Source of the DNA: an uncultured Planctomycetaceae bacterium
Lineage (GTDB): Bacteria > Planctomycetota > Planctomycetia > Isosphaerales > Isosphaeraceae
Direction of reading: 5' to 3'
Length of the DNA stretch: 64,000 bases
Assembly: GCA_963833985.1 (NCBI GenBank)
Contig: CAWIAD010000002.1
Location: 3,648,001 to 3,712,000 of the forward strand
The stretch's first letter is position 1. Each line of letters starts with the position of its first letter. Positions 18,716-45,975 of the stretch are shown in pieces. A model generated the notes under the pieces. That model saw only the letters and a program-made list of their open reading frames with translations, was not told where the DNA came from and did not search any database. Made by a program: the position numbers and the translations under genes.

Positions 18716-19129
18716 TCAGTCCTGCTTCCGACCCGATCCGCCTTTCACGATCTTCATGTTGTTCCAATCAACCAGTGGCAGCACGATGGAATTACCCGGA
18801 CCTTCACCCGTGCCCAACTGACCCATCGAGACGAAGCAGTTCTGAGACAAGAACCAAGCCATCTCCTCCTGGTTGATCGGACCATCGGCGTAAACGTCGA
18901 TCATCACAGATGCCACAAGCCTATACCTTATCAGTCCCTTGCAGCGCCTCTTGAGAATCCGCCGCATGTCTTGAGTCACAACCAGCGAATCGGCATAGGT
19001 CACGGCTTTTCGCTGGTCGTTGGAGAAGCCTCTCCCCGTCCAGTACCGCTCCCTCTCATCCTGGATGATGTACCGGAGCCATTGCGATTCGATAAAAGGA
19101 ATTGCAGCCAAGGTTGGCTTCTTCATCAT
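18716..19129 (-). CDS. Hypothetical protein downstream of the motif copies at 19190/19289
   Basis: GGAGG RBS before ATG 19129. Confidence 0.6.
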   Translation of the reverse strand: MMKKPTLAAIPFIESQWLRYIIQDERERYWTGRGFSNDQRKAVTYADSLVVTQDMRRILKRRCKGLIRYRLVASVMIDVYADGPINQEEMAWFLSQNCFVSMGQLGTGEGPGNSIVLPLVDWNNMKIVKGGSGRKQD

Positions 19130-19157: not shown

Positions 19158-19332
19158 AAGGAGCCTTCACCGGGCTCTCTCCATATACTTCGTCGGTGTC
19201 AGGCGGTGTGCGTGTCGGCTGATCCCCAGGCTGGGTGGCGCTGTCCCTGCCGATTTAAGGAGCCTTCACCGGGCTCTCTCCATATACTTCGTCGGTGTCA
19301 GGCGGTGTGCGTGTCGGCTGATCCCCAGGCTG
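19158..19332. repeat. Exact 76-bp direct repeat (19158-19233 and 19257-19332), each containing a minus-strand TGACACCGACGA
   Basis: Read directly from the sequence; 23-bp spacer. Confidence 0.9.
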
Positions 19333-20365
19333 AATGGCGGCGCTCTCTATATAATAATACGAGGGGCGAAGGCTACGGACGCCTCCCGCACCCGTCAGGG
19401 GCATTTGTAAGTCGCATGAGACTTACGACTTGGCGACATAATCTCAATCGAGAACGAAGGTTCCGCCAACCCCCATCCTGGCTCACGTCCCCCGTCTGGT
19501 CTCATTTCCGCCGCTCCTTCGCAGCCAACTGACACCGCCGATTGCGTCGTTGATAACCAACGACCAACCGGGAGTCAGTCATGCCAACGCAAGAACAACT
19601 CAGAGAGCAGATCACCGCACAAGTCATCGCCGCCTTGGAGTCCGGTGACGTGCCGCCGTGGAGAAGACCTTGGCGACTGGGCAAGAATGCTGGTTCCCCC
19701 GCCAACGTGGTCTCCAAGCGAGGCTACCGAGGGCTCAACCTGCTGCTCTTGGACGTGGCGGCGACTCGCCACAACCTGTCCAGTCGTTGGTGGGGAACTT
19801 TCAATCAGTGGCGGCAACTGGGCGGCAGGGTGATGTCTCGTCCAAGCCACGTTCCTCCTGGCAAATGGGGAACTCAGATCGTCTTCTGGGCTCCCGTCGT
19901 CAAGACAGTCGAAAACGAGAACGGCGAGGAGGAAGAAGACCGGTTCTTCTTCATGCGGACTTACTGCGTCTTCAATAGCGAGCAAGTTGATGGGCTTGAC
20001 CACCTCAAAGCCGGTCAACCTGACACCGGTAAGAACCACGTCGTCGATTTCCAGCCCGCCGAAGAGGCATTGGAAGCCAGTCTCTCTGGGATGCAACTGA
20101 GCCTTCGTTTTGGCGGGGGCAAGGCGTTCTACAACCCTGCCCAGGACTACGTGCAGATCCCACCAAAGGCGACCTTCGAGTCACTGAAAGAGTACTACGG
20201 AACCGTCTTCCACGAACTCGTTCATGCCACGGAACACGAGTCTCGGCTGAACTGGAGTCGGAAGGACAAAGACAAGACCTATGCCTTCGGGGAACTCATC
20301 GCCGAGTTGGGCGGCGTCTTCGTCTGTCGTGAGTTGGGAGTCCCGGCGAGCGATGACCTGACTAA

Positions 20366-21875
20366 TTCTACTGTATCTCTACGTTCGTAGTTGGTTCTTC
20401 AAAGGGGGTAAGAGTTTGCGTGAGTAATGCTGGAAGAATCGGGCGAGCTCGTTGCGTTCCAACCAACGTGTGGTGCACCGGGAGAGCTTCTCGGGGCTGT
20501 TGACGTTGAGACGTTCCTCGATGATCCCTGCGATCAGTTGCCGCAACCGCGGTGACGTCAATGCCGGTGTCTGTATTTTTTCCCCGCCGCGTCTCCTGAT
20601 TCAGGAACCACGCGGCCACGAGCGACAAGGTTTGATGGTGATGCCAGGCGATCCAGTTCCGCACCTGGTAATCGGCCAGGCCCGCCTCCCCTTTGCCCCG
20701 CTCCAGGCACTCCTCGATCCGATGCGCCAGTTTGGCCACCCGGCCAAATTCGATCAACGGAGTTTCGGCTTTACTATTTGATAAATAATAATCATGTTTA
20801 ACAGTTCCATCGGCCTGTTGCTCACGCGTGATGAAGAGGACCTCCTCGAAACCTGCACGATTGCCCGGTCCTCGAGATTGGACGCGCCGCTTGATCGCGT
20901 CGACCACCAAAGGTCCCTTCTCGCCATCACGGACGTCGAGCCTCGTCCACGCCGATTCCGGCAGGGCCGCACGCCAATGATCCACACGCATGAAAGGAGC
21001 CTTGGGGGGTTGACCCCGCCCCCCATATTCCGGTGGCGGTGCCTCCAGATCGCGGATCGTCGTGTTCGACGGAACCGCCAACAGATACTGCTCCCCCCGC
21101 TCCCTCAACGCCTGGCGAAAACTCGCGGGACGGCCCATTTCATCGTCCCCCGCCACCCACGCGTGTGGCAGCAACCCACCTTGCTCATCCAGCATCGCCA
21201 GGGCCAATTGATGGCGCGTCTGGAACTTGATGGACTTGGGGACGCCAGCCTTGTTCCGGCGGTCGCGATCCTTGGCCCATTCCTTGGGCAAGTAAAGCCT
21301 TACATTGGTAATCGTATGCTCTTTTCTAGACGCATAAGCCATGTAGACGCCAACCTGACAGTTCTCAACCTTCCCCAGCCGGCCGCACCACTGCCGCGCG
21401 ACGCCCACCGACATAGTCCCTTTCTTGGGGAAGCCCGAAGGGTCGAAGATAATCACCCCATCCTTCTCGCCCAGTTGCTCGCCGACCTGCTGCGCCAGGA
21501 TCGTGAGCAGGGGTTGATGATCCCATGGCACGTGCCCGATGAACTTTTGGATTCCTTGTCGTTCTTGATCGTGGAGATAAGCGATTCCCTCGCCGGTCTT
21601 GTGCTCAAGCTTCGACAGCAGACCGGTAACGTACTCGGTTGCATGTCGATGTTGTTCAGGTTCGCTCAGGGTCGCAGCGAACGGCTCGATGAAGACGTCC
21701 AACCGTTCCAGCAGACCATCGATCAAGTCAGGCGACACCTGCGATTGTGCCAGCATGTCAGCCAACCGTGCTTCGTATCGTCGATCCATGACGCCCTCGC
21801 TTCCTTGTAACATCCTTGACGGAAGCGAATATCAGAAAAAACCTTACAGTTCGTCAACCCCAGGATACAGTAGAA
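20366..21875 (-). mobile_element. IS701-family insertion sequence
   Basis: 12-bp terminal IRs TTCTACTGTATC (20366-20377) / GATACAGTAGAA (21864-21875). 4-bp CTAA target duplication at 20362-20365 and 24126-24129. Confidence 0.9.
20368..21789 (-). CDS. IS701-family DDE transposase
   Basis: IFDPSGFPKKG..SVGVARQWCGRLGKVENCQVGV and IEECLERGKGEAGLADYQVR.W..WHHH. Confidence 0.92.
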   Translation of the reverse strand: MDRRYEARLADMLAQSQVSPDLIDGLLERLDVFIEPFAATLSEPEQHRHATEYVTGLLSKLEHKTGEGIAYLHDQERQGIQKFIGHVPWDHQPLLTILAQQVGEQLGEKDGVIIFDPSGFPKKGTMSVGVARQWCGRLGKVENCQVGVYMAYASRKEHTITNVRLYLPKEWAKDRDRRNKAGVPKSIKFQTRHQLALAMLDEQGGLLPHAWVAGDDEMGRPASFRQALRERGEQYLLAVPSNTTIRDLEAPPPEYGGRGQPPKAPFMRVDHWRAALPESAWTRLDVRDGEKGPLVVDAIKRRVQSRGPGNRAGFEEVLFITREQQADGTVKHDYYLSNSKAETPLIEFGRVAKLAHRIEECLERGKGEAGLADYQVRNWIAWHHHQTLSLVAAWFLNQETRRGKNTDTGIDVTAVAATDRRDHRGTSQRQQPREALPVHHTLVGTQRARPILPALLTQTLTPFEEPTTNVEIQ

Positions 21876-24119
21876 CCTACTTTCCGCACATCTCGCCTTG
21901 ACTATCTCCTAATTTCCGTGTGCCGTCTTTCGGCCTGTCAGGCTCAAATCTCGTAGGCTTTGGGTATCCCCAGCAGGCGCAGGATCCTCTTCTGGAGCCG
22001 AGTTAACTCTGTGCTGAACACCTCAAGAGGGCGTTTCCCAGCCTTCAGGGAATGCTCTTGAACGTCCTCGTACAGGTCGATCACTTTTCGAGCCGTCGGG
22101 CGTCGGCAGGCCCGACCTTCGGAATACAGTGGCAGGCTCTCGATTCCCGCTCGTTCCATCGCGCGGCGGAGTTCTCGCTCCAACAGCGCCTCGACCAGCA
22201 ACACGAAGAAGTACACGCAGAGCAAGGCCTGAATCCGACTCACCTCCTTCAGGTACATAGGCGCTACCACGAAGTCAGTCTTCAGGTGCTCGAACCGTCG
22301 TTCGATGGCCGGTTGCTGTTTGTAGGCCAAGAGCAGATCCTGCTCCGTCATCTTCGATTCGTTGCTCACCAGCGGGAAAATGCCATCACAGCGGGCCTCC
22401 TCATCCAGTCGCTCCAACTCAATCCGATGCTTCAACGAGTAACGGAGCTTCTCCTCTCGGACGTACCGCGTGTCCTGTCCAGGCCGGCCGCGTCGCTCCT
22501 GGCGGAACTTTTCGGTGACCTGCTCCTCGATCTCGACCGAGATCCACTCGGTGACCTCACAGTCTCGGAGCAGCTCCTCGACCGCCTCGGCGACCTTGGC
22601 TCGACTGCGGTACCGGGTTCGGGACGAGGCGAGCTTGGCACGCAGTTCGTCCAGTCGTTTCAACGCCTTCTCCAGCCGGGTCAGCCGTACCTCCGCATCC
22701 AACTCGGCCTTGCGTGTGCTGTGATACCAGATCAGCCGGTAACCCTCGGTGGTCTGGCTCGCAGGTTTGCAGATCGAGAAGCGGTCGGTCAACTGTCCCT
22801 TGTCGTCGTACTTGTCGTGGGTCCATCGCCACTGGATCTCTCCCCGGAGTACGGCGCCGCGGAAGGCACCGTCCTCACTGCGAGTTCGCGGCAGCACGCT
22901 GAGGAACCGACCGCCGCGCTGATGCAGATAGGCCATGTTCTCGGTGGTGGCCAGCTTGCAGTCGGCGATGTAGAGAAAGTCTCGGCGTCCGGTCAGTTGA
23001 CAGAGCAACTCCCAGGTCTCCTGGTGAGAGCGGTCGTCGGTGGCGTTGCCGCTCTCGACGCGAAAGTGCACCGGGACGGCACCGTCGCCGGTCACGGTGA
23101 GGATGTAGAGTAGCTGCTTGAGGTCGGGGCGGTGGTCTTTGTTATGACCCCAGGTCACCGCCAACCGCAATTGTCCCCGCAGGGTTCGCTCCGCCTCCGC
23201 CGACTCGTAGTCACCGTGGAAAGTGATGGTGGTCGAGTCGTTGTGTAACTGGTCGAGGCTGACGTCGAATTCGCGTACGGCATGGGCCGCGACCTTCAGG
23301 GCCAACCCCGAGAGATTGGCGTCGAAGAGACGGTCGAGGGCCCGGCCAACTCGATCGTCGTTCATTGCGGCGACTTGGACATCGGACAACCCGAACAGTT
23401 TCGGCTCATGGCGGGCCACCCACTCACCGACACCATAGAGTGGCTCACGCGAGATCAGCAGGTTGCGCAGCAGGACGAGCAAGGCCGTGGCCGTGGGGAC
23501 CCGAGTGCGGCCGTCCTCATGGGGCAGGTGGTCGCAGAGAAACTCGCGAAGGCGGAGCCGACTCAGGAAGTGTTCCAGGATGGGCACGGCGGCAATCCGC
23601 CGCGTGTTGAGCGTGCGCTTGCGTCCCTTCGAGCGTGCCGTCTCGCCGGGTTGGCGCGGTCGTTGAGGTTCGTTCATGCGGATCATCTCCGGAGGGTTTG
23701 CAGCGAGTTGGCCGGTGTCCGCCGCCGGGCCTTCCAGGGCCGTGAGGGGAGCAGGCCGACCGCCGCAGGGCTTGCCGCAATGATGGCGGAGGAGATCGGG
23801 ACGTCAAGGACAAAAAATCTTGTGATTCACTTATGACAATTTGCCTTGACGTAAGTTGTGAGCCGCTCAACTTACGCTCATAGCCCGTGTCACAAGTCGT
23901 CGCGGCGAGAATCGCGGCGCGCGGCTGGACATTGCCAAGTCATAAGACAAGGCGAAGAATGGCTCGAGTTCAGGAACGGTCCGGTTGGCGAACCATCTGA
24001 ACCGAACAAGGTCCCCGTGCCGATCGACTTGTAGATGTTTACCGACCCTGGGGCCGCGTCTGAGAAGATGGCCTCAGGTCGAATTCGGGGAAATCAAAGG
24101 GAGATGTGCGGAAAGTAGG
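21876..24119 (-). mobile_element. IS1634-family insertion sequence
   Basis: 19-bp perfect IRs CCTACTTTCCGCACATCTC (21876-21894) and its complement (24101-24119). 6-bp GTAGAA duplication at 21870-21875 and 24120-24125. Confidence 0.9.
21944..23686 (-). CDS. IS1634-family transposase
   Basis: NDDRVGRALD, HNDSTTITFHG, GHNKDHRPDLKQ, YIADCKL and YKQQPAIERRF. Confidence 0.9.
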   Translation of the reverse strand: MIRMNEPQRPRQPGETARSKGRKRTLNTRRIAAVPILEHFLSRLRLREFLCDHLPHEDGRTRVPTATALLVLLRNLLISREPLYGVGEWVARHEPKLFGLSDVQVAAMNDDRVGRALDRLFDANLSGLALKVAAHAVREFDVSLDQLHNDSTTITFHGDYESAEAERTLRGQLRLAVTWGHNKDHRPDLKQLLYILTVTGDGAVPVHFRVESGNATDDRSHQETWELLCQLTGRRDFLYIADCKLATTENMAYLHQRGGRFLSVLPRTRSEDGAFRGAVLRGEIQWRWTHDKYDDKGQLTDRFSICKPASQTTEGYRLIWYHSTRKAELDAEVRLTRLEKALKRLDELRAKLASSRTRYRSRAKVAEAVEELLRDCEVTEWISVEIEEQVTEKFRQERRGRPGQDTRYVREEKLRYSLKHRIELERLDEEARCDGIFPLVSNESKMTEQDLLLAYKQQPAIERRFEHLKTDFVVAPMYLKEVSRIQALLCVYFFVLLVEALLERELRRAMERAGIESLPLYSEGRACRRPTARKVIDLYEDVQEHSLKAGKRPLEVFSTELTRLQKRILRLLGIPKAYEI

Positions 24120-24355
24120 GTAGAACTAACCACATTGCCTATCTCGGGAACTGGCTCCAAGCCATGAAGAACGATTCCCGGTTCATCATCATGGCGAGTG
24201 CTCAGGCGAGCAAAGCCGCCTCTTACATCCTGTCGTTCAGCAGGAAAGAGGAGGAAGTCCCTCAAGAAGACGGTGAACTGGTCACTGCCTGACCTCTTGC
24301 GGGAACGGAGTCCCGCAACCTGACACCGCCGAACAAACTGTCCCGATCGAGGACA

Positions 24356-24517: not shown

Positions 24518-24579
24518 CTCTTCTGAACCGACACCGCCGAGAGGGGTGCGAGAGCACCACACCCATAAGGGAGACGACC

Positions 24580-24798
24580 GTGAGCATTGGTGAAATGACC
24601 GCCGAACCTCAACTCGGCGACACGGCGTTTTATCGTGCTGCCATCCCACGAGCCAGGAAGCAACGAGTGACCGTATCGGGGTTGTTCCTGAATGGGCGCA
24701 TCAAAGTCACCTTCCCGGATGGGAGTTGGAAAAGCCTCCCACGTCATTATCACAAGCGGATTCAGAACGAGCGATTCGGGCTTGTAAGGATCGAATAG
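24580..24798 (+). CDS. Small hypothetical protein (72 aa)
   Basis: GGGAG RBS; GTG start 51 nt after a motif copy. Confidence 0.55.
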   Translation: MSIGEMTAEPQLGDTAFYRAAIPRARKQRVTVSGLFLNGRIKVTFPDGSWKSLPRHYHKRIQNERFGLVRIE

Positions 24799-24883
24799 CA
24801 GTCACAACCGCGACTTCAGCGTCACCGTTTGACACCGCCGAAAGGGATGTGAGATCAACACACACCTAGCAACGGAGATCAAC

Positions 24884-25489
24884 ATGACAGCACTGGGTGA
24901 AATGACCCTAGAAGATGCCGCAAAGCAAGCGGCAGGAAATTGGCAGCGTTTCGAGTGCTTTGTGTGGTTCAGGGACGAGGAGGTTGATGACCCCGACAAC
25001 TGGGTGATCATCTACACGCACAACAGAGACAGCGGTCTCCTTGACAAGAGCAACGCCGAAGCCATCGCCGAAGCGATGGAGCCGTTCACGAACGGTCACG
25101 ACCCGGATGTGGTGGTGGAATCCCATAACCACTGGGCAGTCGGGCACGTGGATGGCTTCAGCATCAGGGTTTACCGGGACGGTGAGATCACCGGAGCCTT
25201 CCGCACCTACCACGACCTGATGGAGCAAGTGGACGGCTACCCAATCCTGGATGAAGAGGATTATTGGGAACGGGAACTTGATGCGACCCTCGAAAACATC
25301 AGTGACGCCGCATGGCGTGTGAAGCACGAATACACCTTGCCCGAGGGCTGGGAAGGAGACGTTTACTCCTGGCTGAGCGACAACCGCTCGGGAGCCGTCG
25401 AGAACCGTGACGACCAAGGGGGCTATCCCGAAGAGGATGACCTTCGGGCGGCGTTCGCTGCCCTGGGCTATGAGCGGATCGAAGAGTAG
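24884..25489 (+). CDS. Acidic hypothetical protein
   Basis: 201 aa with GGAG RBS, motif-led. Confidence 0.75.
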   Translation: MTALGEMTLEDAAKQAAGNWQRFECFVWFRDEEVDDPDNWVIIYTHNRDSGLLDKSNAEAIAEAMEPFTNGHDPDVVVESHNHWAVGHVDGFSIRVYRDGEITGAFRTYHDLMEQVDGYPILDEEDYWERELDATLENISDAAWRVKHEYTLPEGWEGDVYSWLSDNRSGAVENRDDQGGYPEEDDLRAAFAALGYERIEE

Positions 25490-25547
25490 GACCGGGTGAC
25501 ACCGCCGAGGAGGGTGTGATGAACGCCCTCTTCGATGGAGTGAGACC

Positions 25548-25754
25548 ATGAACGAAAGCCCCGATGAGTGGCTCGAACGGCTCTTCGAGTTCGAGTACTG
25601 CCCAGAGTGCGGCGGCGATGCCGACGACCATGAAGTGAGCGTGGTCTTGGGGAATTACTTTGCGTGGTGCAAGCGGTCTCCCTTCGCCGACACCGCCGAG
25701 GAGGGTGTGATGAACACCCTCCCCGATGGAGCACGTGGGGCATCTGTGCCATGA
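25548..25754 (+). CDS. Small CxxC protein; the C-terminus runs through the next motif copy
   Basis: YCPECGG...WC; motif-led. Confidence 0.55.
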   Translation: MNESPDEWLERLFEFEYCPECGGDADDHEVSVVLGNYFAWCKRSPFADTAEEGVMNTLPDGARGASVP

Positions 25755-25825
25755 GTGACCGAGGCGGGGCTGGCATCTTCAGCCCCGCTCACCTGACACC
25801 GGATAACAACCTCGGAGAGCAGTCA

Positions 25826-26191
25826 ATGGCACTGATTGAGCGAAACGGCAGGGTCTATGCCCGCAAACTGTGGATCTTCCTCGGCGCGAGCGAATGGGGC
25901 AACGACCTCATGAGGCTGGTCGCGAGGGAAGCCTTCGCCAATGACGCCAGCTTGGATGCCGTCCAGGTACACGAGCACGGTGGCTGGTATCTCACCTTCC
26001 TGCGAGGCGGCACGATCGTCGGCATCGCCAACGATCAGGCGCATCTCGATGACAGAGCCAATCGGCGGGAGAGATTCGCCGCCCCTGACACCGACGAGAA
26101 GGGCATGGATGCCATGCCGCAGAGCACACGCATGGGGAATACGAATGAGCAACTCAGGAATCACACCACGGTTCAGCCTTCTCCAACTTGA
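25826..26191 (+). CDS. Hypothetical protein; the C-terminus runs through the next motif copy
   Basis: GGAG RBS, MALIERNGRVY... Confidence 0.5.
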   Translation: MALIERNGRVYARKLWIFLGASEWGNDLMRLVAREAFANDASLDAVQVHEHGGWYLTFLRGGTIVGIANDQAHLDDRANRRERFAAPDTDEKGMDAMPQSTRMGNTNEQLRNHTTVQPSPT

Positions 26192-26543
26192 CGAGACCAA
26201 GTTCTGGGCGGATGAGGTTGTCCGTAGTGCCAAGCAGGTTTTCGGTCTTTACGTCTTTGACCAGAACAGGAGGGTCCATTGTTGCGAGTTCACACCCAGC
26301 TACGAGTGCGTCTTCGTCGGTTCCGCTATCGGGAACACCGACCTCGACGAAACCGCCAACGAACGGCTCGACACCGCCATCAGAGAGGGCGATCTGGAAA
26401 CCGAGCAGGTGAAGTACATCCACTGCCGCGAGATCGACGCCCTTCCGAAGATCGGCGATCAAGACCTCAAGGTGGGCGTCTCCGACCTCAACATCGATGA
26501 CGAAGAGGAAGCCCTGGAATACGTCCGACAGCGGGCTCTTTGA
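26145..26543 (+). CDS. Hypothetical protein (132 aa)
   Basis: MSNSGITPRF..., 59 nt after a motif copy. Confidence 0.65.
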   Translation: MSNSGITPRFSLLQLDETKFWADEVVRSAKQVFGLYVFDQNRRVHCCEFTPSYECVFVGSAIGNTDLDETANERLDTAIREGDLETEQVKYIHCREIDALPKIGDQDLKVGVSDLNIDDEEEALEYVRQRAL

Positions 26544-26594
26544 AGTGACACCGCCGACAAGTGCGACAGGCAACCCCCAACTCAGGAGACCCAC

Positions 26595-27488
26595 ATGGCA
26601 TTCACCGCTGATACCGGGGACCACAAAGTCACCCGCAGCGACATTTACCTCGTAGACCCCACGGCGCTGATCGTGGACTGGCGGAAGAACCTCAGCCGCA
26701 ACGGCGAGGAGCCACCCGTTGACGAACCTCTCATGGATCTGGCTCGCGACATGATGCCCAAGAGGGGGCAGGGCGACACGGAGGAGGGCACAAGCGGGCA
26801 ACTCAATCCGATCCTCGTTCGACCCCTCAGCGACCGTCGCCTGGAGGTGGTAGGCGGCTTCCGCCGCATGCGGGCAGCCCTCTGGCTCATCGAGTCGGGC
26901 ACGTGCCCCGACTTCAAGATCAAGTACGTCGTCAGCCGCCTGTCCGACGCCGAGGCGGCACTGATCAACCTCAGCGAGAACATCCAACGGGAAGATCCCA
27001 AGCCCATCCAGCTTGCCCACGCGGTACGGGCACTGACCGAGGATTATGGACTTACTCTCAAGCAGGTTGCAGGACGACTGAAACGCTCCGAGGCTTGGCT
27101 GTCGAATTTGCTCAACCTCGTGATGCTTCCCACTTCGATCCAGGAGAGCGTGGCGAACGGGAAGACTCCCGTCTCTGCCGCCCTTGAACTGACCAAGTTC
27201 CCGACCGACAAGCAGGTCGAGACCTTCAACGACCTGGCAGCCAGTGGCGAGAAAGTCACCGCTGCCAAGGTGCGGAAGAGGCGGCAGGAGACGCACGAGG
27301 CGACCGGTGAGGGCGGTCCCGTGCCCCGCACCCTCAAGCAACTGAGGGCATTCCTCGAAGGAAAGACCGGTCCCGCCGACCCCGGTCACAAGCTCGCCTC
27401 CTACCTGCTCGACTACCTGGCGGGCAAGAAGAGCGATGACAACCTGGGCAAGTACTGGGACAAGGCGTTCCCCGAAGGCAACGGCTGA
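26595..27488 (+). CDS. ParB/Srx-family protein with HTH
   Basis: GQLNPILVR, VVGGFRRMRA, LSENIQRED and an HTH (LKQVAGRLKRSEAWLS). Confidence 0.85.
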   Translation: MAFTADTGDHKVTRSDIYLVDPTALIVDWRKNLSRNGEEPPVDEPLMDLARDMMPKRGQGDTEEGTSGQLNPILVRPLSDRRLEVVGGFRRMRAALWLIESGTCPDFKIKYVVSRLSDAEAALINLSENIQREDPKPIQLAHAVRALTEDYGLTLKQVAGRLKRSEAWLSNLLNLVMLPTSIQESVANGKTPVSAALELTKFPTDKQVETFNDLAASGEKVTAAKVRKRRQETHEATGEGGPVPRTLKQLRAFLEGKTGPADPGHKLASYLLDYLAGKKSDDNLGKYWDKAFPEGNG

Positions 27489-27543
27489 CACCAACGTAGG
27501 GGGCGTGACCAACGCCCCCATCAAAAACCAAAGGGATCGCACG

Positions 27544-28479
27544 ATGACCTACCCCGCACTGACCCTGATCAACCCGATCCCGGACGAGTCCGCCCAGGTC
27601 GCCGAGGAGTCCACGCTCACGGCGCTGGAAGAGCGGCAGAATCTCCTGGCTCATCACGTGCGGCTCGTCGCCCGAGGTCTCTCAGTAGGGCTCTTCGTTT
27701 ATGGACCGCATGGAGGGCTTGGTAAGAGCCGCACAGTGCTGCGGACACTCGCTGATGAAGGCGTGTCGCCGATTCTCGTGAACTCGCACATCACGCCTCT
27801 GGCTCTCTACAGCACGCTCTACTTCAACCGCTCGGGGAAAGTCGTCTTCTTCGACGACGTGGATTCAATCTTTGGCTCTATGTCGCACCTTGGCTTGCTT
27901 CGATCGGCTCTCTGGGGCGATCCCAGGATCGTCACATACGGGTCAAGCCAATTGGATGATCTGCTGGGCTCGTTCATCTTCGAGTCCCGTCTCATCTTTT
28001 CGGGCAACGTGATCCCCAAGCGGAACGACGCCTTCAAGGCAGTGCTCTCGCGGTGCGACATCTTTCAACTCGATGCGACCCAGGAAGAGGTCATTGAACT
28101 CATGAGGTCGGTCTCAAGGCAGGGCTATGAGACGCTGACGCCCGATGACTGCCTCGAAGTCGTAACGTTCATCGAGGAGAACGGTGATGACCGCGCGATC
28201 TCGATAAGGCTCTTGGAGCCGAGCTTCCGCAAGGTGATCTACGCACAATCGGAGGGCTTGGACTGGCGACCGCTTGTCCTGACCCAACTCCGCACTCTCG
28301 GACGCAAAGAGGATACGTCCCGCCGCGTGGACGCCAAGGCTCGGGAGATTCGCACACTTCACCAAGCCATCGAGCGGTTCCCTGACTCTGTGGCTGAGCA
28401 GCAGATGTTCTGGAGCAAAGTAACGAGCAAAAGCCGGGCTTCCTTTTTCCGGCTCATCGCCAAGCACCGTCCACGTTGA
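27544..28479 (+). CDS. P-loop (AAA-like) ATPase
   Basis: Walker A GPHGGLGKS, Walker B VVFFDDVD, and AVLSRC. Confidence 0.75.
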   Translation: MTYPALTLINPIPDESAQVAEESTLTALEERQNLLAHHVRLVARGLSVGLFVYGPHGGLGKSRTVLRTLADEGVSPILVNSHITPLALYSTLYFNRSGKVVFFDDVDSIFGSMSHLGLLRSALWGDPRIVTYGSSQLDDLLGSFIFESRLIFSGNVIPKRNDAFKAVLSRCDIFQLDATQEEVIELMRSVSRQGYETLTPDDCLEVVTFIEENGDDRAISIRLLEPSFRKVIYAQSEGLDWRPLVLTQLRTLGRKEDTSRRVDAKAREIRTLHQAIERFPDSVAEQQMFWSKVTSKSRASFFRLIAKHRPR

Positions 28480-28528
28480 CGATGAGCAGTGGTCCACAGA
28501 GACGGCAAGTGAAAGACTCGCGTCCCGC

Positions 28529-28768
28529 TTACAAGCTGACTTGCACAGCGAGACGGACAATCACGAGAGTCATGATGACGGTATAAGCAATGCAGAGGGT
28601 GGCTCCCGTCAAGGCGAGGTTACGAGACCAGCCAGATGCTCCCTTCGTCATCGAGACAGCCCCAATGGCGATCATCGGGGACACTGGCAATAGCCAGAAG
28701 CAGGCTACGCTCAGGATGGCAAACAGCTTCGCCATTCGCCCCCGCATCACTCCAGCAACAGTGTTCAT
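28529..28768 (-). CDS. Small membrane protein (inverted cargo)
   Basis: Two hydrophobic helices; GAGGAG RBS. Confidence 0.55.
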   Translation of the reverse strand: MNTVAGVMRGRMAKLFAILSVACFWLLPVSPMIAIGAVSMTKGASGWSRNLALTGATLCIAYTVIMTLVIVRLAVQVSL

Positions 28769-28969
28769 GACGCAAGCTCCTCGTGTCGCATCAGCAACCC
28801 TTCTAATCTTGGCACCGTCTACGACATCTGTCAATTCACTGCCTGCCAGTCTTCATTTGCCCAGGAGGAGCCCCTCAACTCCCTGGCTCAACAGTGCGAC
28901 TGCTGAGCCTGAACTGACACCGCCGATCCTCACGTTGAGAACGACAACCACATCAACGGGAGGATCAAC

Positions 28970-29410
28970 ATGATCACGAGATGCGAGCGGCGCGGACAAG
29001 TTGAGATAGGGATCGTTGACCATGAGGGACGGTCCTACGCCGCCTTCGGTTCATCCGTCAACGATCACAACGTAACGGGTTACACCCGGAACCGCAACGG
29101 GTGCATCAGCCTGACTCGCTGGGAGGGCAGCACAATGCTTGCCAGCCGGTCGAATATCGTACGTGAGTATCACGACGGCTCCATCGCCATCATGTTCCGC
29201 CTGACCAACCTCCGGTTCCTCGTCGGCTACGCCCTGGGCGACGACGGCATGTTGTTCAGGGGTGAACTCCTGACCGATTGCGACGGGGAGCGTGCCCGCC
29301 ACGAGTCGGCTGCCCTGGCTCAGTACTGGTCCGAGATCGATGCCGAGGATGAATCTGACCCCTGGCACGGGGAGCCCGACGAGACTGATGGCGATTACCT
29401 GGACAGATAG
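28970..29410 (+). CDS. Hypothetical protein
   Basis: GGGAGG RBS, motif-led. Confidence 0.65.
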   Translation: MITRCERRGQVEIGIVDHEGRSYAAFGSSVNDHNVTGYTRNRNGCISLTRWEGSTMLASRSNIVREYHDGSIAIMFRLTNLRFLVGYALGDDGMLFRGELLTDCDGERARHESAALAQYWSEIDAEDESDPWHGEPDETDGDYLDR

Positions 29411-29501
29411 CAGTTCACGGGTGGGGCGGTAGTAGTGCCGTCTCACTCGACACCGCCGATGGCGGCATCAACTACTACTTGTCTTAAACGGGAGCGACTT
29501 C

Positions 29502-29810
29502 ATGAGCGTGAATGAGACCAAGAAGCCCTTGTTCGACCTTGGACAGATCGTCGCGACTCCCGGAGCCTTGGACGCCCTGCGAGACGCCAGGCAGACACTC
29601 GCCGAGTTCTTGACCCGTCACGTGAGCGGCGACTGGGGCGACCTCGATCAAGAGGATAGCAACCTCAATGACGCCGCCGTGATCGACGGCAGCCGCATCC
29701 TGAGCGCCTATCAGACACGCAAAGGGGAGCGGATTTGGATCATCACCGAAGCGGCTGATGACCAGGGGCACCGCTCTTCAAGCACGCTGCTTTTACCTCG
29801 GGAGTATTGA
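29502..29810 (+). CDS. Conserved plasmid/ICE-associated small protein
   Basis: LFDLGQIVATPGA, RHVSGDWGDL, RILSAY, IWIITEA and LLLPREY pattern, typical of mobile-element accessory genes. Confidence 0.75.
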   Translation: MSVNETKKPLFDLGQIVATPGALDALRDARQTLAEFLTRHVSGDWGDLDQEDSNLNDAAVIDGSRILSAYQTRKGERIWIITEAADDQGHRSSSTLLLPREY

Positions 29811-29914
29811 ACTCATCCCATTCCATCCCTTCTCGCCGGGCTGACACCGGTGAGACGGGTGTGAGATCAATCCCAGCCGTACCCAAGCACCAAGAGGGAC
29901 GATCACACCTGCGG

Positions 29915-30382
29915 CTAAACAGGCTCAGTGGGGTTCCTCTTGCTCCACCGGTGGCAGATCCAGCCAGCAACCAAAGCCGGGATCAATTGGAGCATCGTCA
30001 AATAAGCCATAGCTATTCCAAACCTACAGATGTAATCAGCAGCAGACTGCTGAGAAGTAATGGCTCTCACCACTGGACCAAGGGTGCGGCTCAAGTGCTG
30101 GTCGAGGGAGATGGGAGCCTGGAAACAGACGGCAACATAAACCAGGAGACCAATCCAGCCAACGACCTCAATCCCCGCGAGAAAAGAGAGCGGCTTGTCC
30201 CTTCGTTTTCGCCGTCCAAACAAGACCAGCAGCCCGATGACCAGGACGATCTGAAACGGCAATCCGCCGAAGACAAGGGGATAGAGGACCAGATCAGGCA
30301 AGCCCCGGATCGCCAGACAATCCACGGCGACGATGGCGACGATCACCATGATCTCAGCGATCGAGATCCGAGGGGGTCTCAC
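29915..30382 (-). CDS. Membrane protein with Planctomycete-type N-terminus (inverted cargo)
   Basis: GGAGG RBS, GTG start; RISIAEIMVIVAIVAVD followed by TM helices. Confidence 0.65.
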   Translation of the reverse strand: MRPPRISIAEIMVIVAIVAVDCLAIRGLPDLVLYPLVFGGLPFQIVLVIGLLVLFGRRKRRDKPLSFLAGIEVVGWIGLLVYVAVCFQAPISLDQHLSRTLGPVVRAITSQQSAADYICRFGIAMAYLTMLQLIPALVAGWICHRWSKRNPTEPV

Positions 30383-30512
30383 GGCAATCCCTCCCTTTCG
30401 TCCATCCGGCACGCTTTCGACCAACACATCGTAACCCGCACGGGCACCTCCTGCACCCGACACCGCCGAGACGAATGTGAAATCAACGCCCTCAAACGTG
30501 AAAGGAAGATGT

Positions 30513-30764
30513 ATGACCGACCCAACCGAGGACATCCGGCGTCAGATGCTCGCCGAGATCAACGCCGCCCCCGGCTCCAGGGAGTATCTGGAGCACAAGC
30601 ACGGTCAGGTCTGGGATACCCAGCAATTGTCTGATGACTTCGAGGTGCTGGGGTTCGCCGCCCCGCTCGTCGTCGTGAAAAGGAAGAGCGACGGGCAGAA
30701 GGGGAGCCTCTGCTTCCAGGGCTCTCCCCGGTTCTACTTCGGGTTTGAGGCGCACAAGCCGTGA
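30513..30764 (+). CDS. Small hypothetical protein (83 aa)
   Basis: MTDPTEDIRR..., motif-led; its stop codon is the TGA of the next motif. Confidence 0.7.
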   Translation: MTDPTEDIRRQMLAEINAAPGSREYLEHKHGQVWDTQQLSDDFEVLGFAAPLVVVKRKSDGQKGSLCFQGSPRFYFGFEAHKP

Positions 30765-30815
30765 CACCGCCGAAGGGGGCGTTGAGAACGACGCCCCTTT
30801 CCCGGAGGAAGACCG

Positions 30816-31037
30816 ATGGCAGTGGCACTCCTGACAACCAGCGCAGTCGAGTCGATCCTGCGTGACGCAGTGGACAAAGGCTGTTACGTGGAACACAGCA
30901 AGTCTGATGGGACAGCCAAAGCGTTCCACAGTGGTGACTTGGTGTTCCAGTCCATCCAGAAGGGTAAAGACGGACCCTGGATCTGCCGGTTCGTCAACAC
31001 GGAACATATCACCTGGACCAGCACGACCGAAGACTGA
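30816..31037 (+). CDS. Small hypothetical protein (73 aa)
   Basis: GGAGG RBS; its stop codon is the TGA of the next motif. Confidence 0.65.
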   Translation: MAVALLTTSAVESILRDAVDKGCYVEHSKSDGTAKAFHSGDLVFQSIQKGKDGPWICRFVNTEHITWTSTTED

Positions 31038-31139
31038 CACCGACGACAAGGGCGGGAAGGGACGCCTGCCCCAATCAATTCCCAGAAGGGGTCGTCCACG
31101 CAATGTTTCGCGCCTATTGGCTCTCTCGGAGATCCTGAC

Positions 31140-31874
31140 ATGCCCGAAAACCCCTCCGATGACATGACTCACAATGCAAAGCCGAAATCATCCGAGGCTC
31201 AACTCGTCTCCAGGATTACCCGCCTGGTCAAGAAGGAGGGCTTGGACTACGAGGGCTGGCGGTATGTAAGCAAGAGGGTGCGGCGGCTCTGTGACCTGCG
31301 ACCCGAGAAGAAAGGGCGTCGGCTGCCCCGAATCTTGACCACCGAGGAGTTCAGGAGGTTCTATCAGATCGTGGACCGTGCCCAGGACGTTCAGCACTGC
31401 CTGATGCTCAGGCTCTTGTTCTTCACGGCAGTAAGGGTCAGTGAACTCTGCAACATCGGAGTTTCCGAAGTTGATATCGAGGCGTGCAAGATCAGGATCA
31501 ACCAGGGCAAGGGCTCCAAGGATCGCTACGTCCTCTTCGGCAAGTCCTTCGCCACGGCGCTGCGAACGCATATAGCAGCCCACCCGAACAACCGCTGGCT
31601 CTTCCAGACCCAAAGGCACGGCAAGTTCAGCACGAGGAGGGTGCAGCAGATCGTCTCCAAGTACGCCGAGGAGGCGGGAGTCAAAGCTACCCCTCACACC
31701 TTCCGGCACCAGGCGATTACCTGGTTGACTCGCCATTCAGGGCTTGCTGACGCTGAGCTTCAACTGATCACCGGTCATGCCCGCAGAGAGACCCTTGCTG
31801 TCTACCAGCACATGGCTCTCGATGGTGATTTGGAGGCAAAGTATCAGTCGTCCATGAAAGAGATCGAACTTTGA
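31140..31874 (+). CDS. Small XerC/D-like tyrosine recombinase
   Basis: Catalytic set R (AVRVSEL), K (GKGSKDR), HxxR (HTFRH), H (TGH) and Y (AVY). No N-terminal arm-binding domain. Confidence 0.92.
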   Translation: MPENPSDDMTHNAKPKSSEAQLVSRITRLVKKEGLDYEGWRYVSKRVRRLCDLRPEKKGRRLPRILTTEEFRRFYQIVDRAQDVQHCLMLRLLFFTAVRVSELCNIGVSEVDIEACKIRINQGKGSKDRYVLFGKSFATALRTHIAAHPNNRWLFQTQRHGKFSTRRVQQIVSKYAEEAGVKATPHTFRHQAITWLTRHSGLADAELQLITGHARRETLAVYQHMALDGDLEAKYQSSMKEIEL

Positions 31875-31973
31875 CGATGTACAAAAGTGGGACGGCGAAA
31901 CGCTCGATCGGCTGACACCGCCTAGCGGGCTCCGGAGAACGACCCTCAGCACCCCTCACCGGGAAACTCAGCC

Positions 31974-32875: not shown

Positions 32876-33079
32876 CTACCCTTCGGTCGATGGCGTAACA
32901 ACGGATTCTCTCTGCTCCACTCGACGGATCGCCTCGTAGACCTCTCGCCTGTGGACCGTCACTCCCTTTGGGTGCTCAACCCCAAGCCGCACCTTGTCAC
33001 CCCTGATCTCGATCACCGTGAGGATGATGTCGTCGCTGATGACGACGCTCTCGCCTATCTTCCGGGGGAGCACGATCAC
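32876..33079 (-). CDS. csrA: Carbon storage regulator CsrA/RsmA
   Basis: MIVLPRKIGESVVI...DKVRLGVEHPKGVTVHRREVY; AAGGAGG RBS and GTG start. Confidence 0.9.
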   Translation of the reverse strand: MIVLPRKIGESVVISDDIILTVIEIRGDKVRLGVEHPKGVTVHRREVYEAIRRVEQRESVVTPSTEG

Positions 33080-33322
33080 GGCTGAACCTCCTTGATGGGT
33101 CTCTTGGATGGGAGAGTCCCGATCCCTCAGCAACCAGCCGGAAATAGAGTTGATACGCCGCGAATCTGACCATTCCTCGACCTTGCTGTCAATGCTATCC
33201 ACGTGCCCAGAGCGCCACCATATCCGATCCCTTTTTCTTATGTCCCTACGTTAGCATCTCCTGACACCGCCGAACTGGTCGTAAAAATAACCCATCCGGC
33301 AATAAGATCAGGAGATCCAGCG

Positions 33323-33781
33323 ATGACCACGACCCAAGAAGCACAAGCGCGATTCGTTGAGGTGGCGTATCCGAGGGCGTTGAAAGCAGTCCATCAGGCA
33401 TTCAAGTATTGGCACATTAAGAAGCGGCAGGATGCTGTCCAGGAATGCCTTGCGAAAATGTGGGATCAGTGGATTAGGTTGGTGAACAAAGGACGAAACC
33501 CGGAGCCAATGCTCGGACGCCTAATTTACTGGTCAATCCTCTGGGTTCGATACGATCGACGCATCGCAGGCAGAGCCCGCAACATCGACGTGACCGATTT
33601 CAGATCAGGCATGAAGCAGCAACAAATCAGCAGCAGGGGCGAGGTCAGCCCCACTGATAGAAGCGATCAGATGAACGGCTGGATCAATTGGACCGTGAGC
33701 GCGAGAGCGGACGATCCGGCTCTTCTCGCCTCTTCATTGGAGGAAGTGGGGCTCACCCTGGAACAGTGGGTGCGTGTGTAG
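33323..33781 (+). CDS. Sigma-70 region-2-like protein apparently lacking the region-4 HTH
   Basis: RQDAVQECLAKMW resembles the ECF region 2.2 DxxQE motif. 152 aa, AGGAG RBS, motif 61 nt upstream. Confidence 0.5.
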   Translation: MTTTQEAQARFVEVAYPRALKAVHQAFKYWHIKKRQDAVQECLAKMWDQWIRLVNKGRNPEPMLGRLIYWSILWVRYDRRIAGRARNIDVTDFRSGMKQQQISSRGEVSPTDRSDQMNGWINWTVSARADDPALLASSLEEVGLTLEQWVRV

Positions 33782-34188
33782 GATGATCGTCACGGGGCGG
33801 TGGGATCACCTGCCGCCCCTGGCTGACAGGAGTGGAGCGGGAAATCTGGCTGCTGACTGACACCGACGAAATAGACGTGAGAGTTGTGAGGGGACGGTAA
33901 GGATGGGTTGGTTGCAGAGTTGTTAAAGCAACAATTCCAGGGTTTCTAATGAAAACTCGGTTCCATAGGCGGCGTGGGTGGAACAATACCGAGGGTGGTT
34001 TCATTTATTGTTACTTCGGAATCGGAGGATTCCCCCAGGGAGGCTGAAAAGATCGCCAGAAAGTCGAGGTCTGAAAATCGCCGTTGGGAAATCGGGGGCT
34101 GGCAGGGTTCGACTAAAGACCTCCCCACCCCTAGTCGGATCAATGTAGATCTCGATCCTCTCGTCGGGGATGGCAACTCTCTCTGTCT

Positions 34189-43609: not shown

Positions 43610-43904
43610 CGTCGCCTTCTTTCCTCGAATGATCACCTGCCTGCCGCCAAACAACTGAACCTGTTGCGCTGAGTCCCACGCCCTCGTGAATGACGGTCCC
43701 AGCCCCAACGACCGCTTCTGGCTACCTGGGAAAGCGGAAGCAGATGGCAATCAGGCTCACCAGTCGCGCGATCCCGGTGAGAGAACGGTCGCCCCTCTCG
43801 GCGGTGTCAGTCCACGACACCCAGGGCTGACGGGCGACCACGCCCGCACTCCTTCCATGATAAAATGCGCCGGGGCTGAATACTAGTTATTGTCTGTCTA
43901 TTTA

Positions 43905-43920
43905 TCGACTGTCGAGTCGA
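43905..43920. promoter_or_regulatory. Palindrome TCGACT-N4-AGTCGA, candidate operator of the XRE regulator
   Basis: Perfect 6-bp inverted repeat immediately upstream of the AAGGAGG preceding the HTH gene. Confidence 0.4.
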
Positions 43921-43948
43921 AGGAGGCACCCATCATAAACTCGCCCCG

Positions 43949-44185
43949 ATGCAAGACATCCGCAAACGCTTCGGAGACCGCATCCGAGCACTCCGCAACG
44001 ACCGATGCTGGTCGCAGGAGGAGCTTGCCGACCGGGCGGGCTTGCACCGCACGTACATCGGCTCGGTTGAACGCGGCGAACAAAACCTCAGCCTGGTCAA
44101 CATCGAGCGGCTCGCCGCCACTCTGGGCGTGTCCCTGGCTGAGTTGTTCGCTCCTTTCGCAGACCAGCCCGCCCCGCCTTCCTGA
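43949..44185 (+). CDS. XRE-family HTH regulator (controller-protein-like)
   Basis: FGDRIRALR..WSQEELADRAGLHRTYIGSVERGEQNLSL. Confidence 0.9.
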   Translation: MQDIRKRFGDRIRALRNDRCWSQEELADRAGLHRTYIGSVERGEQNLSLVNIERLAATLGVSLAELFAPFADQPAPPS

Positions 44186-44309
44186 ATCCCCGACCAGGCA
44201 ATGCGCCCTGGACTCGCTGACACCGCCGAGCGTCCCGGACGACCGCTCCCCGACCTCCTCCGTGGACTTGGGGATTGCCAGGCGGTCCTGGGTGGGAGGC
44301 TCGGTGTTG

Positions 44310-44681
44310 ATGTCTCGGAAGCTTGACGAGAGGCTCAGGATGGTCCTGGCGATCGCTGAGGCGATGCGGCATGAGTTCGGCGTGGGGATCGACGCTCATC
44401 CCGGAGGACAAGGGATCGAAGCGGGGTCGATCAACAGAGCGCTCCGGGTGGCTGCCAGGACGATCGTCGCCGATGTCACCACGGAAGGGGACGACACGGC
44501 GAAGCTCTTGACGCAGGTTTTACGGCAGGCAGCGCTACGGCGGCTGACGGAACTTGGCGTACGGCTGGAAGACGCTGAGGTATTGATCTGTTCAGAGCCG
44601 AAGCTGGGGGACCGCTGGATCACTTACCTGGCGCTCGCCCCGGTTGCAGTCATCGATGATCTGCTTGATCATCGACACTGA
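44310..44681 (+). CDS. Hypothetical protein
   Basis: GGGAGG RBS; downstream of the motif at 44218. Confidence 0.55.
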   Translation: MSRKLDERLRMVLAIAEAMRHEFGVGIDAHPGGQGIEAGSINRALRVAARTIVADVTTEGDDTAKLLTQVLRQAALRRLTELGVRLEDAEVLICSEPKLGDRWITYLALAPVAVIDDLLDHRH

Positions 44682-44694
44682 ACTCACTTTGCTA

Positions 44695-45363
44695 GCCCTG
44701 GCGTGCTGGACGCCAAGTCGCAAGTCCTTAAAGCCAACCCCCGCCAGCCTTTATCTTGTCAATCTCGTCGATGAACACGATGCCCCTTTGTGCGGCTTCC
44801 AGGTCACCACCGGCAGCTTGGATCAATCTGACGAGCAGGCTTTCCACGTCCTCACCGACGTAGCCAGCCTCGGTGAGAGACGTGGCATCACCAATCGCGA
44901 TGGGAACGTTGAGGTAACTTGCCAGGCTTCTGACTAGGTGGGTTTTGCCTGAGCCCGAGGGACCGATCAGGAGGATGTTGCTCTTCTCGATTCGCACATC
45001 CCGTAGGTCGCGGTCAGCGATTATCGGGTCGGGAGCGTCACGATCCCAGGCATCGATGAGACGCTTGTAGTGGTTGGTGACTCCAAGCGCGAGTCGCCTT
45101 TTGGCGATCTCTTGCCCGATGACGTATTGGTCAAGATGAGCAACCAGGGACTTGGGGGAAGGGATCGACGCGAGACGCGCCTCACGGGAGGGGGGATCAG
45201 CGGGTGGGGTTGGCTCGGGGACTGGCTGGGGAGTGATCTCGGTGACCGCCTGGGCGGCACAGGTGCCACAGATGCGGATTGGATTGTCCCACACGCCGCC
45301 CTCGAAAAGCTGGGTGGTCACTTGTTTGCCGAAGTCACAGGAAGAAGGTTGGTCATCGGGCAT
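44695..45363 (-). pseudogene. clpX: Truncated ClpX paralogue
   Basis: [42 protein letters not shown] and FIDEIDKI. A frameshift near 44740 continues as [12 protein letters not shown]; the C-terminal half is missing. Confidence 0.85.
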
Positions 45364-45701
45364 GGGGACACCGGGGATCAGAGGCGTACCGCGACCACCA
45401 CGATGGCAGTCGGATGCCCCCTCCGTCGGTGTCAGGCACTTGTGAGCCGATAGCTTGCAGGTCCGAAGGGAGGATGGGTCGGGCTGGCACTGGGCGGTGA
45501 TTTGAAGACCGGTACAGCCGGGGCGTGCTTCACTTGAGGGGTGCTCGGGAGGTGGGCTCTAGCAAAGGCTGATCCGGGTATTGACTCTCTTGAATCGAGA
45601 TTCGTCCGTACTCCGGTGAAGTACCCGGGAGTTAGGGTGAAAGCGAGTATCAGATCGTTGATGGATGGACTTGCGGCGGAACGCAGGGAACGTTGCAGGA
45701 C

Positions 45702-45825: not shown

Positions 45826-45861
45826 TTTATCACAGGATTTATCACAGAATTTATCACAAAA
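45826..45861. repeat. Three tandem 12-bp repeats TTTATCACARRA, probable integrase arm-type sites
   Basis: TTTATCACAGGA, TTTATCACAGAA, TTTATCACAAAA, 40 bp from the tRNA 3' end. Confidence 0.7.

Positions 45862-45899: not shown

Positions 45900-45975
<76 letters not shown>

Follow-up and report, generated by a model that had tools for sequence, protein, structure and literature searches.

The closest described counterparts of the gene array analysed here are the promoter early stem-loops (PeSLs) of T4-type phages. In the available parts of the two reports, PeSLs are repeated regulatory cassettes situated between small non-essential genes, genes are gained and lost through recombination between cassettes, two copies may enclose a gene at a place where only one is present in a relative, and each PeSL is about 100 bp long, with strong sigma70-like promoters and terminators (PMC2839356; PMC4122927). 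The array lies in a 64,000-nucleotide stretch, hereafter the window (C2:3,648,001-3,712,000), of the genome (10.16 Mb, 65% GC) of an uncultured Planctomycetaceae bacterium, inside an island at a tRNA-Ala gene, where the box YGACACCGCCGA forms the head of about 19 units. As in PeSLs, the repeats flank variable genes and mark the breakpoints of gain and loss. Unlike PeSLs, arrays of this kind share a common part of only 12-20 bp that is specific to each element, sit in islands integrated at tRNA or tmRNA genes and lack a TAnnnT motif, none having been found at a spacer of 16-19 nt behind any of the 19 window boxes. The array works like T4-type PeSLs but has no sigma70-type -35/-10 pair, and it is not an integron.

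Other systems resemble the array in part. The pre-early motifs of Thermus phage P23-45 place one motif before many starts at the genome end and are served by a dedicated enzyme, and the available text describes no role in shuffling (bioRxiv 10.1101/2022.12.01.518664). The array of a 572-kb phage, described below, is also found at the record ends, but unlike P23-45 this phage gave no match to the RNA polymerase families PF00562 or PF00623 (beta/beta-prime) and has three sigma-like open reading frames (ORFs), one of 94 amino acids; a phage RNA polymerase as reader of the box was rejected on this ground. Searches with PF00940 and PF05183 were equally empty, but so were their controls, and they carry no weight. 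The stoperators of cluster A mycobacteriophages and the start-associated sequences (SAS) of cluster K are, in the sections available, 13-bp asymmetric, strand-biased repeats with a phage-specific consensus, the stoperators having a known helix-turn-helix (HTH) repressor and the SAS sitting at the ribosome-binding site (PMC3029335, PMC3203893). Our box differs from both by its fixed distance from a pyrimidine|purine (Y|R) step, and no shared repressor turned up in the complete elements or in the 89 cassette families scanned. In Reg576 of p576, ardC and small genes stand under repeated upstream elements, with sigmaA promoters and a repressor on conjugative plasmids, as far as the available text goes (PMC6294495). 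Unlike Reg576 and IncN plasmids, the island yielded no transfer genes (relaxase, type IV secretion system), and no virion genes (capsid, terminase), in a Pfam scan of 151 island-region ORFs (58 + 93, hand-picked, short ORFs skipped), and it now looks immobile. The conserved upstream (CUP) repeats of IncN plasmids also hold ardC and small genes under repeated upstream elements, as an establishment regulon. Integrons likewise combine an array of single-gene units with a tyrosine recombinase; the array differs from them by having no attC, no IntI insertion, a recombinase that is inside the array and co-oriented, and units that are likely self-promoted.

The sequences themselves show the units, their element-specific boxes and a Y|R step at a fixed place, and they show that units are gained, lost and swapped with breaks at the box. 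The explanation that we favour, and consider probable, is that the units are PeSL-like self-promoted cassettes that are shuffled by homology and read by an element-specific factor, with the tyrosine recombinase as a passenger. Every unit consists of one small gene preceded by its box and a short leader. The box is likely a promoter element, different from element to element, that occupies positions 20 to 8 ahead of the predicted start; each gene would thereby have its own promoter, with transcription beginning at the Y|R step, and the box would be read by a dedicated factor, either sigma-like or supplied by a helper. Homologous recombination would delete and duplicate units and re-insert circles by crossing over at the repeats of 12-45 bp, as in T4-type PeSLs. 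The recombinase would work at the dyad upstream of its own gene, where it would probably resolve dimers of the circle after excision. Most likely the array is an establishment or anti-defence module of the now immobile island. The chief point of interest is the element-specific, start-proximal box that islands and a giant phage have in common.

Allowing up to two mismatches, TGACACCGCCGA occurred 34 times in the window against 9.15 expected, and none of 100 shuffles reached as many; 10 of the 12 exact box copies in the genome lie inside the island. The array spans from the ardC box at 19530 to the box at 33858 and holds genes for ArdC, ParB, an AAA+ ATPase-like protein and a tyrosine recombinase, as well as small genes of unknown function. 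The first-pass annotation had overlooked the extension of the array to these two boxes and five further boxes on either strand (19201, 19300, 43809, 44218 and 45434), as well as the separate dyad site of the recombinase at 31077-31104; what is most likely a promoter role of the box, and its difference from element to element, had also escaped it.

A Y|R step at offsets 19/20 was found in 17 of the 19 window boxes and in 138 of 212 pooled boxes of the GACACC type, in which the other 32 positions showed such a step in 11-30% of cases. Further arrays of the host family had the step in 72/78 boxes, and the phage had it at the matching place in 48/52. The step lies four bases further from the anchor in GACACC-type boxes than in phage boxes, and alignment on the step places all boxes at -20 to -8. 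In 116 of 118 island leaders the ribosome-binding site begins at offset 18 or beyond (at 18-26 in 23 of them), and it precedes the Y|R step in only two; five island genes have their ATG exactly at the step (three in locus L031, one in L054/66 and one in L051/56). No conserved hexamer at a -10-type distance was seen in the further host-family arrays. The tRNA genes of the host have canonical promoters, TTGAC(A/C) with TAnnnT, and a host sigma70 promoter was therefore rejected for the window boxes, which have no TAnnnT; the same contrast would imply a dedicated factor.

A scan with cassette family F4 led to a complete 572-kb phage record (G126; loci L192 and L434), in which about 50 small genes in 18.6 kb each follow a WAAYCTGTACC-like box, a type also present in islands L031, L054 and L051. 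Exact 10-mers of the phage box are on one strand in 46/47 cases, most of them near the record ends. The ATG stands exactly 16 nt after the box C in 19 genes (one doubtful), and in 11 of 22 in a second stretch. The 30 genes with their ATG at the Y|R step nearly all lack a ribosome-binding site, and in others this site begins at the 16-nt point. An ATG or ribosome-binding site fixed at one offset is what leaderless and short-leader mRNAs made from a fixed transcription start would produce, and we infer such a start for the phage. T runs ahead of 22/51 phage boxes suggest that transcription has to begin anew at every unit. Two cassette families are common to phage and islands, with 54-59% identity. 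Among 169 viral loci, 27 passed the repeat score given below, and of the seven inspected only L192 had this box type; a scan of viral contigs with the phage box gave single matches, probably by chance. The phage record also has direct terminal repeats, and at least 70 small genes stand behind one box near its ends.

Among relatives with the same box, alignment blocks start and end on boxes, whole units are missing or swapped, and unit order is changed between L058 and L082 and among ten family arrays. For 41 orthologous units (excluding four first units, and with a few pairs wrongly matched by the automatic procedure), identity over the 30 nt before the box was 0.47 where the upstream neighbour differs (n=21) and 0.72 where it is the same (n=20), with a background of 0.41 (p=5e-5), and the 32 nt behind the box were above background in both groups (0.61 and 0.73, respectively, vs 0.45). 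The nearest leader belonged to the same gene in 52/73 cases and to another gene in 21/73; leaders look as if they usually travel with their gene, the 21 being borrowed. A stop codon falls at -3 to +6 in 65 of the 154 island boxes having an upstream ORF, in 36 of them on the TGA of the box, and the phage box supplies stops likewise, as TAA. As for mini-circles arising from exchange between repeats, no box-to-box joints were listed in the one DNA sequencing run, in which the contig has a low share. The comparisons of relatives support portable cassettes with breaks at the box, and the earlier proposal that genes are gained, lost and shuffled at the leaders is borne out by the gene-order changes among relatives.

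The relatives were retrieved via the recombinase as 60 loci, mostly from Planctomycetota, and many of them hold the same gene pool in another order, with a box of their own. By our grouping there are about 14 kinds of box: TGACACCGACT, TGACACCCGCA, GGACACCGGCCA, AGGCACCTGCTA, CGGATACnnGCTA, GGAGACCGG, CCGACTGATGTC, TCGCCCTC, GGCTGTATA, TTTCCTGTACA, TTGTACCC, TAACTGTACCAAG, CTGTACCTT and AAATTGGAC. The box follows the element and not the host, since two loci of one metagenome-assembled genome, L056 and L080, have different boxes. Genes cross box classes: recombinases beside different boxes are up to 85% identical, and ATPases up to 81%. The boxes are asymmetric, oriented, element-specific 13-mers in intergenic gaps, and they also occur singly and divergently, ahead of genes on either strand. 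The cassette genes form roughly 130 families, almost all without a Pfam match. A fixed repeat score was passed by 15/60 loci (14 of the 41 longer than 15 kb) and by 7/60 random host windows, one of which is this array. Two islands are complete, one of 62.6 kb at tmRNA and one of 37 kb at tRNA-Leu; inspection of these complete elements revealed neither a common regulator nor a relaxase or capsid gene, and the 89 cassette families scanned likewise contained no shared regulator. A family-wide search for box patterns placed 121/121 genomes above a reversed control that was not codon-matched, and its result was not used. A host regulon of the TGACACC-type box was rejected, with only 2 exact copies outside the island and, genome-wide, no ATG at a fixed distance behind box words. 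In addition, a viral contig (L283:18323-19400) contains a long array of 36-nt units with AGCGAGTCA in common.

The features of the array and its surroundings in the window are as follows.

19190-19300, minus strand: two boxes inside an 89-bp duplication, divergent from ardC, before ORF 18716-19129
19529-19541, plus strand: box heading ardC, first unit of the array (motif search)
19581-20390, plus strand: ArdC-type anti-restriction gene, ArdcN plus metallopeptidase (Pfam, PHROG)
24320-24332, plus strand: box with no gene behind it
24528-24798, plus strand: unit of box, leader and 72-amino-acid ORF; leader like 24884-family leaders in relatives, first codons common
24829-25489, plus strand: unit of box, leader and 201-amino-acid acidic protein, family F20, partial phrog_4313
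25496-25754, plus strand: unit 25548 between the duplicated 43-bp leaders (25498, 25689), a likely insertion footprint
25793-26543, plus strand: two units, boxes 25794 and 26086, ORFs 25826 and 26145 of unknown function
26545-27488, plus strand: unit of box and ParB-like gene, its stop being the TGA of the following box
27485-28479, plus strand: unit of variant box and AAA+ ATPase-like gene with a C-terminal helical motif, F12, phrog_1250
28914-29810, plus strand: two units, boxes 28915 and 29448, ORFs 28970 and 29502, the latter of family F4, found in phages too
29841-30457, plus strand: box without a gene of its own, the slot filled by minus-strand membrane-protein ORF 29915-30535
30457-31037, plus strand: two units, boxes 30458 and 30762, ORFs 30513 (F10) and 30816, both stopping on the TGA of the next box
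31077-31104, no strand assigned: degenerate recombinase-linked dyad, predicted resolution site
31140-31874, plus strand: XerA-like tyrosine recombinase, 244 amino acids
31912-32399, plus strand: unit of box and damaged member of family F62
33261-33781, plus strand: unit of box and 152-amino-acid protein like sigma region 2, without region 4, candidate box reader
33857-33869, plus strand: box that closes the array, not followed by a gene
43798-45434, no single strand: three outlying boxes, 43809 (minus), 44218 (plus) and 45434 (minus), a Y|R step after each, near the island end
45902-45948, minus strand: island end, 47-bp tRNA-Ala repeat, exact repeat at C2:3561377-3561423

The ardC gene is interrupted by two insertion sequence (IS) copies; its 3' end lies near 24125-24316, and its blocks are contiguous in the related genome G031. 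The two IS, of DDE_5 and DUF4277 types, stand in tandem at 20362-24121, and each has ~8-20 near-identical copies in the genome. The leaders at 25498-25540 and 25689-25731, earlier noted as near-identical, share 93% identity over 43 nt, and this duplicated leader has 82% identity to the leader of the gene that occupies the slot in relatives and is absent here. The pattern is as expected if a circle of leader plus gene had entered by recombination at the leader already present, with later loss of the gene that stood there before. A common leader and common first codons had also been claimed for units 24529 and 24830; GGTGAAATGACC is indeed common to both (24589, 24896), but the leaders are only 68% identical over 50 nt. 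The gene at 24580 and a relative of it in L418 open with identical codons, which points to an old gene birth from a 24884-family start and not to a recent swap. The remaining details of the first-pass annotation were found again: CAACGG(A/GAG)GATCAACATGA recurs at 24870 and 28954, the TGA of the box is the stop codon of the ORFs ending at 27488, 30764 and 31037, ORFs 25548 and 25826 read through the following box, and no gene stands behind boxes 25688, 29842 and 33858, to which box 24321 can be added. A second 24884-family gene at C2:1308690-1309292 (67% identical, similar leader, different upstream sequence, no TGACACC box) is perhaps the remnant of another array. A CsrA-family gene lies within the array (32876-33202, minus strand) and also occurs in four related loci.

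The tyrosine recombinase lies between boxes 31035 and 31913, as had been annotated, and its catalytic set is intact (R99/K124/H186-R189/H213/Y222). It is closest to XerA, to which it aligns nearly without gaps; integron-integrase models match it in two stretches, far below cut-off and with XerA best, and the alignment to IntI4 stops at residue 147. A dyad, ATTTCGCAnAA-N6-GttCaCGAAAT, occurs in one copy, never twice, shortly upstream of the recombinase gene in 48/60 loci, whatever the box class, with complementary bases at each of the outer six pairs in 81-100% of sites. The window copy has four mismatches, is among 15 such matches in the genome and was identified by its position. The R-K-H-R-H-Y set and the one dyad beside the gene agree with a Xer-type single-site resolvase. 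Single-recombinase dif systems such as XerS/difSL have one Xer-like gene and one roughly 28-bp dyad just upstream; the recombinase here differs by its short N-terminal domain and mobile-element context, and resolution is predicted from its sequence. Loci L072, L073, L075 and L077 (Spirochaetia, Patescibacteria, Dadabacteria and Ignavibacteriales labels) have recombinase and dyad with no box array detected. A module of RuvB-like ATPase, HTH gene (which we take to be AlpA-like, from its motif), dyad site and recombinase recurs in L061, L065, L051, L054, L039 and L031.

The sequence attC is recognised by pairs of the form RYYYAAC ... GTTRRRY, and no such core pairs were found in any of the 18 boxes tested. 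The recombinase has no match in the 572-kb phage, none on the array contig of G031, and no relatives in the viral scans. The proposal of an integron-like array driven by the recombinase did not stand: attC-type core pairs are lacking, the IntI-specific insertion, suggested earlier as a check, is absent from the window recombinase, the enzyme has a conserved site of its own, and arrays exist without it. The integron reading is not supported.

ORF 33323 is a candidate reader of the box. Its predicted fold has three confident helices with extracytoplasmic function (ECF) sigma chains as top matches, the best Foldseek E of 0.09 being non-significant, and its family gave weak matches in Pfam (E 0.024, 2/15 members) and to TIGR02983 (E 0.007). 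As an ECF sigma factor it has only region-2-like helices and no region 4. Longer relatives (L026, L027, L028 and L034) have a C-terminal HTH, the L027 protein matches sigma families, and a sigma-like gene stands behind a box in most family loci. ORF 33323 was rejected as a universal reader, being absent from many arrays, and the AAA+ protein F12 was rejected as reader, its C-terminal motif KSRAS/TF being constant across box classes. The host genome has 110 sigma region 2 matches, and a host factor may read the box.

The box could instead be an operator or a -35-type element bound by a repressor or activator in the manner of stoperators or Reg576, with the start ~35 nt downstream and the same homology shuffling, which we regard as unlikely. 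The resemblance of NTGACA to the TTGACA ahead of host tRNA genes suits a -35 element, and so do the bipartite look of L059 and the box-to-ATG distance of 49-65 in 66/78 units of the host family; neither TAnnnT nor a conserved hexamer is found where it should follow, however, and in 25/118 leaders the ribosome-binding site stands before offset 27. Asymmetric, strand-biased, element-specific 12-13-mers fit the stoperators as described in the available text (PMC3029335), but an operator leaves the ATGs fixed at one offset unexplained, and the complete elements share no regulator. It is quite improbable, in our judgement, that the boxes are site-specific recombination sites of the array's own recombinase, integron- or shufflon-like. 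Enzymes up to 85% identical stand beside different boxes, each mostly with its single dyad (48/60), the recombinase is lacking both from the G031 array and from that of the phage, with its approximately 50 units, other box classes have no dyad, and the boxes tested have no attC cores. These points stand against intact catalytic residues, breaks that map to the box, box classes that cluster on the recombinase tree, a weak dyad in the family box (GACACC-N8-GGnYGT) and the TGA stop donated by 36/308 island boxes, as attC ends do.

An action of the box on a single strand, as an RNA-processing site cut at Y|R or a hairpin promoter on single-stranded DNA, seems very improbable. It would agree with the strict strand bias and with the hairpins of the family (loops centred +4 to +8, z below -2 in 36% of 136 boxes), and a cut at a fixed distance would give leaderless genes too; but hairpins reach only 7-25% in seven other sets, no known RNA family was matched in Rfam at E up to 1, and the T runs before phage boxes argue for a new start per unit. 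The self-promoted cassettes that we favour also face contrary findings. Within the box class of the window, no start codon coincides with the predicted +1, so that the transcription start in the window is deduced from other classes, and the box-to-ATG distances fit a -35 position as well. The family hairpin covers the predicted start, mostly without a U run, which a promoter role does not explain; it may end the upstream transcript, because those genes stop on the box. The second phage stretch has the Y|R step in 26/40 cases, with chance matches not removed. A sigma-like gene is present in only 9 of the 16 family genomes having F10 and is not near five other arrays, and no dedicated reader was found among the regulators compared in islands, arrays and phage. 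The recombinase tree, which is poorly resolved, clusters by box class (14 changes, minimum 12, shuffled mean 18.8), compatible with co-evolution of box and recombinase; shared descent would predict such clustering too. Finally, more than one mechanism would place breaks at gene boundaries, and the neighbour comparison includes a few wrongly paired units.

A wider reading, possible but tentative, is that planctomycete islands have a private system of transcription in common with at least one giant phage, built on a single -20 to -8 box, no -35 and a dedicated factor that is half a sigma or comes from a helper phage. An island would on this reading be a satellite that stays silent, its anti-defence cassettes being turned on only by the arrival of the matching factor; the box sequence would drift into specificity groups, and the boxes would double as an integrase-free platform for gene capture. 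In these arrays, chromosomal islands would have a widespread means, apparently not described before, of assembling and rearranging sets of anti-defence and unknown genes that needs no integron; no paper on them was found in full-text literature searches, which largely left subscription papers and supplements outside their scope. They would also provide a concrete promoter architecture in a phylum with poorly known phage and mobile-element regulation. The reader, once found, would give naturally orthogonal promoter-factor pairs, and the roughly 130 cassette families are a pool of candidate anti-defence genes.

The 47-bp tRNA-Ala stretch at 45902-45948 has its exact copy 132.5 kb upstream, and the DNA between the two copies has a lower GC content of 54-61%, which together indicate an integrated island. 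At the left end of the island, a reading frame is broken by an IS630-type transposase, and it matches the integrase of G031 weakly (23%, E 3e-4). Tandem TTTATCACA repeats flank both island ends (window 45826-45860; C2:3561478-3561502) and are candidate integrase arm sites. The Pfam scan of window ORFs showed DUF1501, DUF1549 and DUF1553 genes, which, like the names of the relatives, are marks of a planctomycete. We also detected in the island a defence-like cluster (L003:89-17618) of SNF2 helicase, Eco57I-type methylase, DEAD helicase with MZB domain and Mrr nuclease, and three RNA-recognition motif genes near each other (L005:13066-16424); the G121 island has another large defence-like block. 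Near the island end, a truncated ATPase, labelled ClpX-like from its motifs, stands behind a box (44728-45363, minus strand), and G031 has similar ORFs at the corresponding place.

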